Positions 32,901-35,918 of a DNA stretch of 55,913 nt are shown here, in pieces. The position numbers and the translations under genes are program-made. Numbering within the stretch: the first letter of the stretch is position 1; the number at the start of each line of letters is the position of its first letter. The notes under the pieces were generated by a model, which had not been told where the DNA came from, searched no databases, and saw only the letters and a list, made by a program, of their open reading frames with translations. This stretch comes from a virus: IMG/VR virus record IMGVR_UViG_3300017751_000001. One strand, 5' to 3'.

Positions 32901-34174
32901 GCATCATCATCTTTCTGAATAGAAATACCCGTAAACTGAGCACAAACCATGGACTTAAATCCAGTGGCTTTATCACCATCACAATCAAGTCCATTGAGAC
33001 CGTATACTGAACGTAGAGAGCAGTTAAAGACGTAAGGTGATGCAGAACCCACAGTATCGGGTTCGATGATTACAGACGAATTCTGGATCTCCTGAGACGT
33101 TGGCAGTGCTGTGATAGGTACACTGGGAGCAAGATATGTGAACTCAGTATCGCTGATAACTTCCTCAACTAGGAAGGATCCGTTGTATGAGTTAACAGAT
33201 GTTGTGATACCAGCAATAAGAACAGGAGTATCCTTGAATAGTCCATGTGCCTTTGTCGTGTCTACAGTGATAATATTATTAGGAGTATTACCGTCACCAG
33301 ACTTAATAGAAGTAATACCAACTGGGTCAGCAGCAAGGTCACCAACAATTCTAAATTCGTCTACACTTGGTTCAAAATCATCGAATGTAGGATAATCGGG
33401 AACAGGTCTACCAGAAGCATCACCATAAGCTTTTGCTACCTTAAAGTAGAACATATCTAGGTCGGTTAACCCAGAATCCTCTCCATTGATTATTACATTA
33501 TTTACACCATCTGCATAGGTAAATGCAGCTAGTTTATGGTGAGAACATGTAGGAACCTTTGTGTTACTATCATAGTCATAGTATGCGGTTCTAGAAATAT
33601 CTGCATCAAAGATCGTGAAAGCGGTAAAGTAACAAGTACCAGTAACACGAAGAATACCACTATATAATTGGTTATCATCTAGTGCATCGGGTACATATAA
33701 TGGTCTCAGTTTAGTTTTACGAAGATCCAATCCAATGATAGAAGTACCACGGGGGAGAATTGATCCGCCTTCCGTGGAGTTATACTTATAAAGTTCGTTG
33801 TTTGGATCTAGAATATCAAAATTAGTTTCCGAAGTAAACTGAGTCAGATCAGCAGGTTGCCATCCTGCATTTTTCCTAATACTAAATTGAGCAGATCCGA
33901 GATTACTCGTTACAGTATATCCTGGTCTGTTATCAATGTAGTGAATGCCAGGGAAAACCAGAATGGTCGTTCTATCAATTTTGTCATTATTTTTGCCTGT
34001 TTGATAAGAAAATCTAGCAGCTTCAATTAAAGCTCGTTGAATAGTTTTGAATGGTCTCGTCTGTGAGTTACCACGGTTTTCAATACTATCAGTAGCATCA
34101 AAGTCGCTTGGATTTACATATAAAATATTACCTTCAGCGTTCTTTAGAAAATTTTCTAATCTTGATAGAGGCAT
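26903..34174 (-). CDS. Large tail fibre/structural protein with C-terminal peptidase S74 intramolecular chaperone
   Basis: N-terminal ILYVNPSDFDATDS..NRGNS..RPFKTIQRA; G/S/T-rich beta repeats; SDDRLKTN...GVSAQEVEKVLPEAV...YEKIVPLLIEAIKE. Confidence 0.88.
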   Translation of the reverse strand: MPLSRLENFLKNAEGNILYVNPSDFDATDSIENRGNSQTRPFKTIQRALIEAARFSYQTGKNNDKIDRTTILVFPGIHYIDNRPGYTVTSNLGSAQFSIRKNAGWQPADLTQFTSETNFDILDPNNELYKYNSTEGGSILPRGTSIIGLDLRKTKLRPLYVPDALDDNQLYSGILRVTGTCYFTAFTIFDADISRTAYYDYDSNTKVPTCSHHKLAAFTYADGVNNVIINGEDSGLTDLDMFYFKVAKAYGDASGRPVPDYPTFDDFEPSVDEFRIVGDLAADPVGITSIKSGDGNTPNNIITVDTTKAHGLFKDTPVLIAGITTSVNSYNGSFLVEEVISDTEFTYLAPSVPITALPTSQEIQNSSVIIEPDTVGSASPYVFNCSLRSVYGLNGLDCDGDKATGFKSMVCAQFTGISIQKDDDAFILYNPDTAIFNDDLSVSDSDRPLHSNSRAIYKPTFETSHMRVRNNAVVQLVSIFAIAYARHFHAERGGDASITNSNSNFGQTALESSGFRPESFNRDDVGYITHVLPPREIQKAETTASWLTLDTPKTVGVGITDRLYLFNYNTEEIVPPAQVDSYRIGAKKEDKLFLSIVNTLTGQAVQETYETPILMQVPSGTGVESEKDYKVIRNSGVNAIISNVITLTTNHQLNNGEKIRIFSNTGETPNGIVNDKIYYAIAGGNLAANRIQLASTRNDALARRPLTGLANGGGELTVVSRVTDKLPGDPGHPIQWDNVNTQWYVIAHPSETFNQIFPALQTIGAGVIGDETGSTYVKRRVDNRSLIDRLYRVRYVLPKEHVDARAPKPGFVLQESKTVGIGSASFLTADLSNPTQLKNVKIIKSADFNGTTITITTELPHRLIEGDLVKVKNVESVNNPLNTYKVGFNGEFEIDNVVSSKAFTITGITTDPGAFLNEINERTTQQQIEDLPIVERSKALDSLYVYRVQESKPHIPGTSGQDGVYNLTLVCGSIPLDKDLGFGVSTKSFSQDIRNLYPQQDRDNYTSDPQPSITHANASVIGNVISNNRQNSLTREALSYFMQGQRVGYAVTGAVVTGTGNTTLTMFTDSEHRFNQIKSLNIIEPGSGYNNGSGISTVIYAADLENVALTGKQSSAKVQISAAGTVTSVEILDGGTGYGIGNTMTISAFPAGSPTTNAVVEVTGVFDNIYDGMHLSGFADPILNGTFKIVDIPSSKSISVEIPQSRGLGPYFTVRDDRRLPTYHHANIGVGVTYIDVIDRDEGSVKLLTDANHTLVAGNCFTIQGTGNGNWDDNIFIVDDVDNDNPLRSIHFSVGVHTVGFITAYDTINTRLFGTGISANSKTLGLGENNLAGRASYFYAGISTTVDAPITSTDTVLTLTSTEGFSKGDYIVIGSEIMRFTSDNINSVLRGQFGTVNTSAPVGSTIKKIAVLPMELRRPSILRASGHTFEYLGYGSGNYSTSLPQKQDRVLTDIETLAAQKKELDGGKVVYTGMNDSGDFYTGYKRLSSITGEEEVVGAPIFSYTGDDAEAEGTKRVSGVFDELLVRESITVEGGDNNNRTSQFYGPVNFTEKLANSSDAGIETKNFFLRGNAPQGKLMTVGIQTPTGAKRSGDLSFIGIPDNGGYVGHIYAEGDWRRFGVISREKHRNFYTVDQVSIGASDGSTFRWRDTLEVNGVTKLDHLFVAGIVTFASNQTFSGVTYDSIVVRQLANFYAYNFSGGFSDEGIKWETYGYYTQVHEGGTSRLHDMEVVGTYVSFKSNCKVDFLGEITSGYTGINSIKGDITCSNISVREQDPLNGSGKFFAEDLVVQTGFATDFNVGTTGPGGVLTIGNRSGSTLNGHANIVSLTGPGMPDDTGGGSVALPVQGGGETYQGVSRVAITSAYINVGVITNFHAPSVSHLNQPKIQSGIATNFEVTNNLTVTDGGSSATIKTLNYTTGSGTDLTLTGDLEVQGGSSVARIREIEFDQQIVGPTAIFNDVKATTLNPKTASTLTINCTAITATSTITCTDSGSSATINNITSQELTMEPSSSGIIKTPKLEVGNSSGDQGADAKIRYLNGYTANGVTQLDINCGTNGKVKSFQFESTCATGNAPFKCVSTTKVTNFNADLLDGMNTSSTNQSSASIVSRDSSGNFKGNIITANSFSGGTISGSNGSFSGTLNVSSTITGNVTGNLTGTASNATKAQSVDKLKGILHNVGENQTVVVSNFKYENSSVYAPNFRGKFIGNGSEVTNLNASNITTGTLPSSVVPEISADDIVGGTLDASVVPTLNQDTTGKAGKTDDVLVNGLGNDSGPHYLILQKGNAGGGAYTRMRVDSGISYDSNSNDLRIKGDVVAFVSDDRLKTNRNTIANALEKVRSLNGFTFNFNERALDEFGKDTTIDHVGVSAQEVEKVLPEAVTDSAHDSYLTVKYEKIVPLLIEAIKEQSDQIDSLREEIKKLK

Positions 34175-34217
34175 TTTATCTGCTCAATATATTATTCCTT
34201 TTTGTATTTAGACAATG

Positions 34218-34268
34218 AAAAAACCCCTCCAACCCTAAGGTCAGAGAGGTCGCACTTCCTTCACACAT
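34218..34268 (-). ncRNA. Candidate ~50-nt small RNA with intrinsic terminator
   Basis: Promoter TTGCAC-N17-TATAAT, then GTGTGAAGGAAGTGCGA, hairpin CCTCTCTGACC-TTAG-GGTTGGAGGGG, TTTTTT; no ORF. Confidence 0.6.
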
Positions 34269-34272
34269 ACTG

Positions 34273-34301
34273 ATTATATCACAAAAATAGTACCTGTGCA
34301 A
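34273..34301 (-). promoter_or_regulatory. sigma70-type promoter
   Basis: TTGCAC-N17-TATAAT with extended -10 TGn. Confidence 0.75.
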
Positions 34302-34489
34302 ATCATAGTTACTCCATTATGTTTTTTGATTCTGTGCAGATAACCCATTTATAACTCTTTTTCATTTCATTTGCAAACCACTTGGCATTAATTTCGTCAT
34401 CAAAGTATCTGCTCTGTTGTTGAGGAGAAAGTTTTCCTGGTTCGGACCATCGAACAATGTATTTACTCACAAAAATAGTACCTGTGCAA
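34279..34489. repeat. Perfect 23-bp direct repeat (34279-34301 and 34467-34489)
   Basis: TCACAAAAATAGTACCTGTGCAA twice. Confidence 0.9.
34309..34470 (-). CDS. Small hypothetical protein (53 aa)
   Basis: GTG start, MSKYIVRWSEPGKLSPQQQSRYFDDEINAKWFA... Confidence 0.6.
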   Translation of the reverse strand: MSKYIVRWSEPGKLSPQQQSRYFDDEINAKWFANEMKKSYKWVICTESKNIME

Positions 34490-35195
34490 TCCTTTCATTA
34501 TTTTTGAACCATCCAGGAGCCATACTTGGTGCATGTAGAACATCTACAGGGTAAATAAGCATCCTATTATATCTCATTCCAATCTCTGCCTCAATTTTTA
34601 GTGCAGAAGACATTCGTAACGTATCAAACAAACCCTGGTAAGATTCGGTGCATTTATTATCGGCACTTGTTATCTCAGTAAACTGTTTTTCATATAGTAG
34701 AGATCTTTCTAGTCCTTGTTTGTCAAGATAACTATAGAAGTTTGTGCCTCCCTGGCATTCCTCAGGAGTATTCAAATAGATTACAACTCCAAATCTAGAT
34801 GGCAATTGAAACCTCAAATATGTATCTTGGTGAGGAATCAACCCAAAAGGATTATTGACTAGTGTTTGGTTACTAGTAAAGTTTACTAAAAACTCTGCAT
34901 TTCTCCAATTAGTTTCATATGATAACTCATCGTACCAGTTATTCCAGATAGCACGATTTCTAACAAAATCATCAATAACTTCTTTTATATTACGGATATC
35001 TTTGTGTGGAATTGCTAGTCTATCACCAAAGTCGCAGTGTTCATTGATCTTTCCTGCTTCACCTCTACGAGTTAATGCAAATTTTCTAACTTCATCAGGA
35101 TTTTGATAAAGATTATCAATTACCATACATGTAACTGCATTTGGTCCAATACCGTCAAGTTGAGCAACTTCTAACGCATTACCGATCTCAAACAT
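34467..35195 (-). CDS. DUF6445-like 2OG-Fe(II) oxygenase-fold protein
   Basis: VIDNLYQNPDEVR, PHQD, IYLN.PEECQGGT.FY, YNRMLIYP..LHAP. Confidence 0.75.
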   Translation of the reverse strand: MFEIGNALEVAQLDGIGPNAVTCMVIDNLYQNPDEVRKFALTRRGEAGKINEHCDFGDRLAIPHKDIRNIKEVIDDFVRNRAIWNNWYDELSYETNWRNAEFLVNFTSNQTLVNNPFGLIPHQDTYLRFQLPSRFGVVIYLNTPEECQGGTNFYSYLDKQGLERSLLYEKQFTEITSADNKCTESYQGLFDTLRMSSALKIEAEIGMRYNRMLIYPVDVLHAPSMAPGWFKNNERIAQVLFL

Positions 35196-35220: not shown

Positions 35221-35293
35221 TGGGAGATGTGGGGATCGAACCCACCTTATCCGAATTATGAGCTCGGTGCATTCACCAGATTGCTAATCTCCC
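35221..35293 (-). tRNA. tRNA with CAT anticodon (elongator Met or Ile2)
   Basis: GGGAGAT/ATCTCCC acceptor, CCGAG-CTCATAA-TTCGG anticodon arm, GTTCGATC T loop. Confidence 0.9.
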
Positions 35294-35297
35294 TAAA

Positions 35298-35369
35298 CTC
35301 CCCTTCCTGGGATCGAACCAGGGACCAAACGATTAACAGTCGTTCGCTCTACCGCTGAGCTAAAGAGGA
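35298..35369 (-). tRNA. tRNA-Asn(GTT)
   Basis: TCCTCTT/AAGGGGA acceptor, AACGA-CTGTTAA-TCGTT arm, GGTTCGATCC. Confidence 0.95.
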
Positions 35370-35551
35370 TTGTCTTTTTTATGCGTCTCTAGAAGATATT
35401 CAACAGTGTTTGCTACATCATTCATAGCATCACGAAGCATAGGTTGTTGACCAGAAGTTTGTTCTACTTTAGTAGTGCCATTCTTAAACTCCTCGCAAAG
35501 AGTCCAACGCCATTGACCCATACTATTAGAATACCAAAGATTGATCTTCAT
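35360..35551 (-). CDS. Conserved small hypothetical protein
   Basis: MKINLWYS..MGQWRWTL; GAGG SD; stop overlaps tRNA-Asn 5' end. Confidence 0.7.
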   Translation of the reverse strand: MKINLWYSNSMGQWRWTLCEEFKNGTTKVEQTSGQQPMLRDAMNDVANTVEYLLETHKKDNPL

Positions 35552-35566
35552 GGAACCTCTAGATTT

Positions 35567-35587
35567 AAAGGGGGCATTACACCCCCC
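35567..35587 (-). terminator. Hairpin/terminator after tmRNA
   Basis: GGGGGG-TGTAATG-CCCCC-TTT. Confidence 0.55.
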
Positions 35588-35594
35588 AGAACTA

Positions 35595-35842
35595 CTTGGT
35601 TAACAAGGCTAGTTTAACCCCGATCTCCCATTTAGGCAGTCGCGAGTTCGCGAGTGCGGGAGAATGCAACGATGTTATTCGCTGCGGTGTCAGATGTTTT
35701 TGCATCTATGGTTTGCTTATCCAAGCAGGTTTCAGTCACATTCCGTGTACCCTGTCGAAACCATGGCACCCCCAAGTAATGGAGGTGAGGGGAATCGAAC
35801 CCCTGTCCAGAATGTCGATGATGCAACCTATTCCACAAAAGT
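35595..35842 (-). ncRNA. ssrA: Circularly permuted two-piece tmRNA
   Basis: Acceptor piece ending GGACAGGGGTTCGATTCCCCTCACCTCCA (35780), 6-nt spacer, coding piece starting GGGGGTGCCATGGTTTCGAC (35773); G3.U70; tag ANNIVAFSRTRELATA* at 35632-35682; outer ends approximate. Confidence 0.93.
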
Positions 35843-35846
35843 GGAA

Positions 35847-35918
35847 AGCCCACAGTCGGATTTGAACCAACGACCTACGCTTTACAAAAGCGTTGCTCTA
35901 CCACTGAGCTATGTGGGC
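35847..35918 (-). tRNA. tRNA-Thr(TGT)
   Basis: GCCCACA/TGTGGGC acceptor, ACGCT-TTTGTAA-AGCGT arm, GGTTCAAATCC. Confidence 0.95.

Follow-up and report, generated by a model that had tools for sequence, protein, structure and literature searches.

A conserved small RNA gene of Synechococcus T4-like phages with exact complementarity to host tRNA-Val(CAC)

The window analyzed here is the whole 55,913-nt stretch of the virus record IMGVR_UViG_3300017751_000001, which belongs to a T4-like Synechococcus myovirus. Just upstream of its fibre gene, we found a predicted small RNA (sRNA) gene whose 5' end is a 16/16 reverse complement of nucleotides 22–37 of cyanobacterial tRNA-Val(CAC). The same complement recurs in a large family of cyanophage sRNAs with otherwise unrelated bodies. 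Based on this match, the sRNA may be an antisense RNA with tRNA-Val(CAC) as its target, which we consider an even call. The complete account, in which the sRNA would pair with and disable this tRNA and so put a host-biased brake on protein synthesis, is more tentative and is held with clearly less than even confidence.

The sRNA gene lies on the minus strand. Its promoter comprises a -35 box TTGCAC (34296..34301) and, after a 17-nt spacer, an extended -10 element TGaTATAAT (34273..34281), which together match 10 of 12 consensus positions plus the TG. The predicted +1 is G 34266, the seventh base past the -10 box. With the start taken from the promoter and the end from a U6 tract (34218..34223), the predicted RNA has 49 nt (34218..34266). 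It begins with the 16-nt seed GUGUGAAGGAAGUGCG (34251..34266) and continues into a terminator hairpin of 13 pairs and a 4-nt loop (34222..34251). With 6 of the 13 pairs being G-C and U6 following, the hairpin scores as an intrinsic (Rho-independent) terminator, which is compatible with an sRNA because the hairpin is then its 3' end. The fold of the 49-nt RNA has a minimum free energy (MFE) of -20.1 kcal/mol (z -2.9) and leaves the first 15 nt unpaired, giving a free 5' end of 15–16 nt. The RNA contains no ORF, and no tRNA was called at 34218–34301 on either strand (ARAGORN, Rfam RF00005). All parts named in the initial annotation, i.e., a near-consensus promoter with +1 in 34266–34268, a hairpin, and U6 in about 50 nt free of ORFs, could thus be located. 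The CTAAATA late-promoter box that it assigned to the fibre gene, a neighbor outside the sRNA, was found after the terminator (34211–34205, minus strand).

A trans-encoded sRNA is recognized by its own promoter and intrinsic terminator without an ORF, and by a conserved single-stranded seed beside a variable scaffold; the former is predicted from the sequence of the window and the latter is seen across the family described below. The promoter match alone is within chance, with 10 promoter-like sites in a 2-kb region against 8.5 in shuffles. As far as sequence can tell, conservation and the 16/16 match to a host tRNA lift the element far above chance.

The closest record to the window is phage Sf-FS3, with 86% identity across this stretch and a single difference, one loop base, in the sRNA. 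The genes around the sRNA are all encoded on the minus strand. They run from a tRNA/tmRNA cluster (35221–35918; Rfam and ARAGORN) through a 242-aa gene with a DUF6445/2OG-oxygenase-like domain match (35195–34467) and a 53-aa ORF without a Pfam match (34470–34309) to the sRNA and the fibre gene (ATG at 34174), which encodes 2423 aa with a Peptidase_S74 end by domain match. The -35 box and spacer of the sRNA promoter form one copy (34279..34301, minus strand) of a 23-bp direct repeat, of which the window holds two exact copies with none expected. The second copy (34467–34489) is the 3' end of the DUF6445 gene. Between them, the repeats bracket a 188-bp insert holding the 53-aa ORF. In Sf-FS3, there is one copy and no insert, and the -35 box is kept inside the 3' end of the upstream gene. 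This looks like a gene insertion, or a potential deletion, by recombination at the promoter-bearing repeat. The repeat was also considered as an NtcA site and dropped on its letters alone, as it reads GTA-N8-GTG and not GTA-N8-TAC.

The tRNA cluster of the window also holds a phage-borne two-piece (permuted) tmRNA of the cyanobacterial type (35541–35869, minus strand), at a distance of 1.3 kb upstream from the sRNA. Its score with Rfam RF01851 is 141.6 bits, and its tag, as read by ARAGORN, ends in ...ELATA; the locus L001 1344–1633 is listed alongside it. Sf-FS3 has the same tmRNA gene (143 bits), which is unannotated there and has a hypothetical CDS overlapping its end. Among the literature matches listed, there was no paper on a cyanophage tmRNA.

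The tRNA span matched by the seed begins with three bases of the 3' side of the D-stem and position 26 and then takes in the anticodon stem's 5' strand and all 7 nt of the loop, anticodon included (Synechococcus WH7803 gene, L157 2062–2133). In a scan of 596 Gb of bacterial genomes, every match of the 16-mer in cyanobacteria fell on the reverse strand of a tRNA-Val(CAC) gene. Outside the cyanobacteria, the 16-mer matched the same tRNA in Actinobacteria and Planctomycetota, and the remaining matches, all in coding sequence, were about as many as a 16-mer should find by chance in 596 Gb. The tRNA-Val(CAC) gene is the sole site of the target 14-mer at 0–1 mismatch in three Synechococcus genomes, where sites with two mismatches are no commoner than for a reversed-pattern control. 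Within the window, no further seed site with ≤3 mismatches was found.

The computed duplex of seed and tRNA-Val(CAC) has -30.6 kcal/mol, a value reached by none of 2000 shuffled seeds. For the sRNA and the tRNA together, the net cofold gain is about -17 kcal/mol, which leaves aside the tertiary structure and the modifications of the tRNA. When 2.3 Mb of cyanophage DNA were searched with the other 40 tRNAs of WH7803, the antisense matches were limited to chance ones within coding sequence, none of them comparable.

More than 118 IMG/VR contigs (a lower bound) contain the exact 16-mer, with about three apparent chance matches, and a 14-mer shifted by one base occurs in another 120. From both scans, we collected at least 124 distinct sRNA sequences with seed, hairpin, and U-tract, with a median length of 44 nt; related phages in this sample are non-independent. 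The family is common in phages of marine and freshwater Synechococcus. Only 13 core columns are invariant in a MAFFT alignment of 24 diverse members, a conservation that is partly built into the sample because most members were fished with patterns fixing the core. This 13-nt core is wholly unpaired in the MFE fold of 106 of the 124 members. A hairpin is always present, though the hairpin sequences are unrelated and fall into at least 35 types less than 60% alike; as MAFFT aligns the seed only, each sequence was folded separately.

A promoter precedes 119 of the 124 members (a -10-like box in 91, the late box TAAATA in 28), and the box ends mostly 5–7 nt ahead of the first base complementary to the tRNA. 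Hence, the complementarity starts at the predicted transcription start. The complementary stretch slides along the tRNA and stays at 15–20 nt, most often 16: members without the 5' extension have three extra matching bases at the 3' side, and vice versa. At positions -1, -2, and +1 next to the fixed 14-mer, 80% of members keep the match to the tRNA, which decays farther out. Seed and hairpin were found at no fewer than four unrelated genome positions, under early-type and late promoters. This recurrence with both promoter types speaks for selection on the RNA itself.

Sf-FS3 and S-SM2 each have one sRNA copy per genome, just upstream of the fibre gene as in the window, and in Bellamy, it likewise lies upstream of the fibre gene. 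Many other phages have it behind a late promoter in the interval from the major capsid gene g23 to g3. We checked this position directly in S-CAM9, S-RIM8, S-H35, and SynMITS9220M01; Syn19, Syn33, S-SM1, S-SSM5, and Syn9 (at about 119420–119470, between gp134 and gp135) belong to the same group. BLAST also gave matches to this region in S-B64, S-RIM4, and S-RIM50, with alignments that stop 3 nt before the 3' end of the seed. In S-RIM2, the sRNA precedes a 2OG oxygenase gene. In L274 (425–468), the sRNA copy lies about 1 kb upstream of the fibre gene, and the fibre promoter itself is without the element; therefore, the position shifts even among close relatives.

In a further group of contigs with large tRNA arrays, a phage tRNA-Gly(UCC) gene has seed and hairpin as its 5' leader, without a U-tract (L010 2576–2591 on the minus strand, L028, L025, L060, and L020). 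The leader mostly lies just after tRNA-Thr(UGU), and in L020 after tRNA-Arg. Processing of the tRNA by RNase P would release the same small RNA. Three of the five checked contigs (L028, L025, and L020) also carry tRNA-Val(UAC). Between seed and tRNA, some members of this group, e.g., L020, L032, L059, and L115, contain a longer conserved structure.

We compared 80 orthologous fibre upstream regions. Conservation at this place, which the initial annotation had proposed as a check, holds for some phages (the above-mentioned Sf-FS3, S-SM2, and Bellamy), but many of the regions have the late box only and no sRNA. In others, the place is taken by different RNAs, which are again antisense to tRNA-Val(CAC). 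One such sister class spans the whole anticodon stem-loop. Another, class IV with about 78 nt, is antisense to nearly the whole 3' half of the tRNA except for a deleted T-loop. From its predicted +1 on, it consists of the complements of the acceptor 3' strand, the 5' T-stem, the variable region, and finally the 3' anticodon stem and loop; one position is held as a G-U pair and not a mismatch. We located class IV at L286 1355–1470 and in L281, L290, L303, L311, and L313. S-SCSM2R matches it across 91% of its length; in S-CAM1 and Sf-FR1, the match is confined to the downstream part that covers the anticodon-loop complement (E 8e-3). The arrangement suggests that an inverted fragment of the tRNA gene was captured and gave rise to class IV.

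The complement of the anticodon loop is the sole feature common to all classes, which fits a mechanism with the loop as toehold. In all classes, the cofold gain with tRNA-Val(CAC) amounts to 17–20 kcal/mol.

A shorter antisense match of 13 nt to tRNA-Val(CAC) (nt 33–46) was noticed in S-RSM4 (L403, about 1500) and Syn1 (L395, about 1503). The match is embedded in a longer region where hairpins are repeated, each with GTGGYG after it, with a phage tRNA-Gly(UCC) gene about 80 nt downstream of the match in S-RSM4 and the nearest one about 580 nt downstream in Syn1. Possibly, the region forms a larger structured RNA with an anti-tRNA-Val segment in it.

The distribution of the target was assessed with the 18-nt target sequence: of 201 genomes in the WH7803 family, 122 contain a single mismatch-free copy. 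These 122 comprise nearly every genome larger than 2 Mb and few of those below 1.9 Mb. In four small genomes sampled, the closest tRNA gene was tRNA-Val(GAC), which has a different anticodon arm; the small genomes of the family are presumably Prochlorococcus. The tRNA was also used to search 15 complete phage genomes; of these, Syn9, S-SSM5, S-SM1, and Syn33 have the antisense element, and Syn1 and S-RSM4 have the shorter variant. Six phages isolated on Prochlorococcus (P-HM1, P-HM2, P-SSM2, P-SSM4, P-SSM7, and P-RSM4) have no element and only short matches inside coding sequence. The element was not found in S-PM2, S-ShM2, and S-SSM7 either; these are Synechococcus phages that manage without it, which counts against the proposed role.

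GUG is the commonest valine codon of the host and the rarest of the phage. In the Synechococcus loci, it makes up 51% of valine codons and 3.7% of all codons, against 7% and 0.47% in the ORFs of the window and 2% of valine codons in the fibre gene. These values show that the phage could afford the loss of tRNA-Val(CAC). GUG is not depleted more strongly in the phage than other NNG codons. As all NNG codons are equally rare in the phage, the GUG bias supports plausibility only: it follows from the difference in G+C content and does not single out tRNA-Val(CAC). The tRNA-Val(UAC) genes of phages, found in S-SM1 and several sRNA-carrying contigs, have different anticodon arms that the seed does not match. 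Syn9 carries such a tRNA-Val(UAC) as well (PMC11726456).

From these data, we propose the following mechanism. A minimal trans-acting antisense RNA of about 49 nt, with a sigma-70-type promoter and an intrinsic terminator of its own, would present an unpaired 5' end aimed at host tRNA-Val(CAC). Pairing is expected to nucleate on the 7-nt anticodon loop, the sole freely accessible stretch of the folded tRNA, from which strand displacement would proceed along the 5' side of the anticodon stem and reach the D-stem. A duplex of 16 bp would form and unfold the tRNA, which would then be lost to charging and decoding, or be cut by a double-strand RNase. As GUG is so common in the host and so rare in the phage, loss of the tRNA would slow host translation much more than that of the phage, and many sRNA carriers have a tRNA-Val(UAC) of their own, with an anticodon arm to which the seed is no match.

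Mature tRNA is tightly folded and modified, and invading both the anticodon stem and the D-stem costs energy. Because tRNAs are abundant, simple sequestration would require very abundant sRNA or a catalytic step. At its full extent, the proposal is a codon-selective host shut-off run by RNA via tRNA-Val(CAC) and complemented by phage tRNA-Val(UAC) that escapes the sRNA, in which the tmRNA of this lineage might recycle ribosomes stalled at GUG. We advance this scheme with reservation, as something short of an even chance. Scarce tRNA stalls ribosomes and tmRNA frees them, so that a link of the tmRNA gene with the sRNA is possible.

The sRNA had initially been read as a Yfr2-like sponge or mimic, the seed of which would titrate the loop of host Yfr1 and thereby rewire the control exerted by Yfr1 and Yfr2. 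Part of this reading is borne out. We located the host Yfr1 through its motif and found that Yfr1 of Synechococcus WH7803 indeed carries ACUCCUCACAC, that the Cyano-1 RNA of Rfam (Yfr2) starts with its exact complement, and that the seed is this complement with two extra A. As the site in Yfr1 is unpaired, the sRNA class of the window still has a net cofold gain of -12.5 kcal/mol with it, and for this class, a secondary pairing with Yfr1 is conceivable. A stand-alone conserved sRNA gene with a single-stranded, Yfr2-like 5' end therefore stands; Yfr1 as the target is not supported, and we regard it as very unlikely. The computed duplex with Yfr1 has -15.4 kcal/mol and needs two bulges, against 16 of 16 pairs and -30.6 kcal/mol for tRNA-Val(CAC), yet the two "extra" A match the tRNA exactly and are invariant in every seed-core member examined. 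Class IV relatives are without the whole stretch that holds them. Since the Yfr1 motif is invariant, a mimic of Yfr2 would be expected to copy its exact end. The covariance model of Cyano-1 (RF01701) gave no match at E ≤ 10 in 33900–34700, where a true WH7803 member scores 52.8 bits. Instead of a 5' end exactly complementary to the Yfr1 motif and a central stem-loop with GGAAACA-type motifs, the sRNA has the bulged seed and a body of a single terminator hairpin. The main argument for the tRNA and against Yfr1 comes from the sister classes: classes II–IV keep the tRNA match, whereas their complementarity to Yfr1 is reduced to the 6 nt GUGUGA and the gain falls to -8 to -9 kcal/mol.

Three other explanations were considered. 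The sRNA could protect the tRNA, either by shielding the anticodon loop from a host anticodon nuclease or by neutralizing inhibitory tRNA fragments. The same complementarity would be expected in this case, and tRNA halves would suit the finding that one class is complementary to the 5' side of the loop and another to the 3' half. Defences that cleave tRNAs and the counter-measures of phages are well documented (PMC10264068). Nevertheless, a tRNA unfolded by the duplex could no longer function, and a phage that hardly uses GUG has little to protect. To our knowledge, no nuclease acting on tRNA-Val has been described in these hosts. Overall, we consider protection unlikely. We judge similarly improbable that the seed acts on another host or phage RNA by shorter imperfect pairing and that its tRNA match only reflects origin from a captured tRNA gene fragment. 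Such pairing is how most sRNAs act, sites with two mismatches do exist in host genomes, and class IV, resembling an inverted tRNA 3' half with the T-loop deleted, suggests capture. However, the two-mismatch sites do not exceed their control, the window offers no other site at ≤3 mismatches, and capture leaves unexplained why 15–20 nt of exact complementarity are kept where hairpins and flanks have fully diverged. Highly improbable, finally, is the absence of any trans function, with the hairpin as the terminator of the upstream tRNA/early-gene cluster and the seed as a tRNA relic, attachment-site-like, or a Shine-Dalgarno-like 5' stabilizer. The hairpin does sit at the end of the upstream gene cluster, GAAGGAAGUG resembles a Shine-Dalgarno sequence, and phage attachment sites often copy parts of tRNA genes. 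Yet the phages in question are lytic and T4-like, the span copied here differs from the 3' part of a tRNA gene that is usually copied, and class IV lacks a Shine-Dalgarno-like stretch. Moreover, the element always runs antisense to the tRNA when oriented by its promoter, it has an own promoter at a fixed distance in 119 of 124 members, and it occurs at no fewer than four unrelated genome positions.

Rfam 15 contains no family matching the element, at gathering thresholds or at E ≤ 10 in 33900–34700, and a literature search across 8.4 million papers and preprints on the element, on cyanophage sRNAs, and on phage sRNAs pairing with tRNAs gave nothing relevant. The main comparative paper on these phages does not mention non-coding RNA. 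The sRNA family thus appears to be undescribed, and it would be a large new family even if it acted by another mechanism. Its Synechococcus hosts are major primary producers, and Syn9 and other model phages carry it. Should the pairing prove real, a regulatory antisense RNA would have a tRNA as its direct target, which would give a virus a new way to bias translation towards its own genes and provide a compact, programmable example of tRNA targeting by RNA. It would also add to work on why phages carry tRNA genes and on tRNA pools and infection outcome (PMC11726456).

Among known systems, Yfr2 (RF01701, Cyano-1) with its partner Yfr1 (RF01116) shares the host group with the phage sRNA, and both Yfr2 and the phage sRNA are short with an unpaired, purine-rich 5' end GUGUGA... 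for antisense pairing. The phage sRNA differs by the two extra A in its seed, by a body that is only a terminator hairpin without internal GGAAACA-type loops, by being phage-encoded, and by having a tRNA and not Yfr1 as its best complement. Phage sRNAs that reprogramme the cell by base pairing with host RNAs are exemplified by AgvB and AsxR, anti-sRNAs of enterohaemorrhagic E. coli prophages, and by DicF. Their targets are host sRNAs or mRNAs and their action depends on Hfq, whereas the target proposed here is a tRNA; we know of no phage sRNA of this type that targets a tRNA.

Watson-Crick pairing with a tRNA or its precursor, as proposed for the cyanophage sRNA, is used by the T-box leader (specifier codon and NCCA), by the retroviral primer-binding site (18 nt, tRNA 3' end), and by the 3'ETS-leuZ sponge, and class IV resembles them further in that its computed pairing includes the acceptor 3' strand. 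The T-box, however, reads a folded tRNA through 3 + 4 nt in cis, and the cyanophage sRNA would act in trans. The primer-binding site, unlike the sRNA, serves reverse transcription, and in 3'ETS-leuZ, a tRNA spacer is the regulator and not the target, opposite to our proposal. In its outcome, the proposal also resembles T4, infection by which is reported in classical work of the late 1960s and early 1970s to inactivate host tRNA-Leu(CAG) specifically. T4 would in this way remove the isoacceptor for a G-ending codon that is preferred by the host and rare in the phage, and it brings its own tRNA for an A-ending codon, much as proposed here. T4 uses a protein nuclease for this purpose, whereas the agent of the cyanophages, with its proposed effect on the tRNA, would be an antisense RNA.
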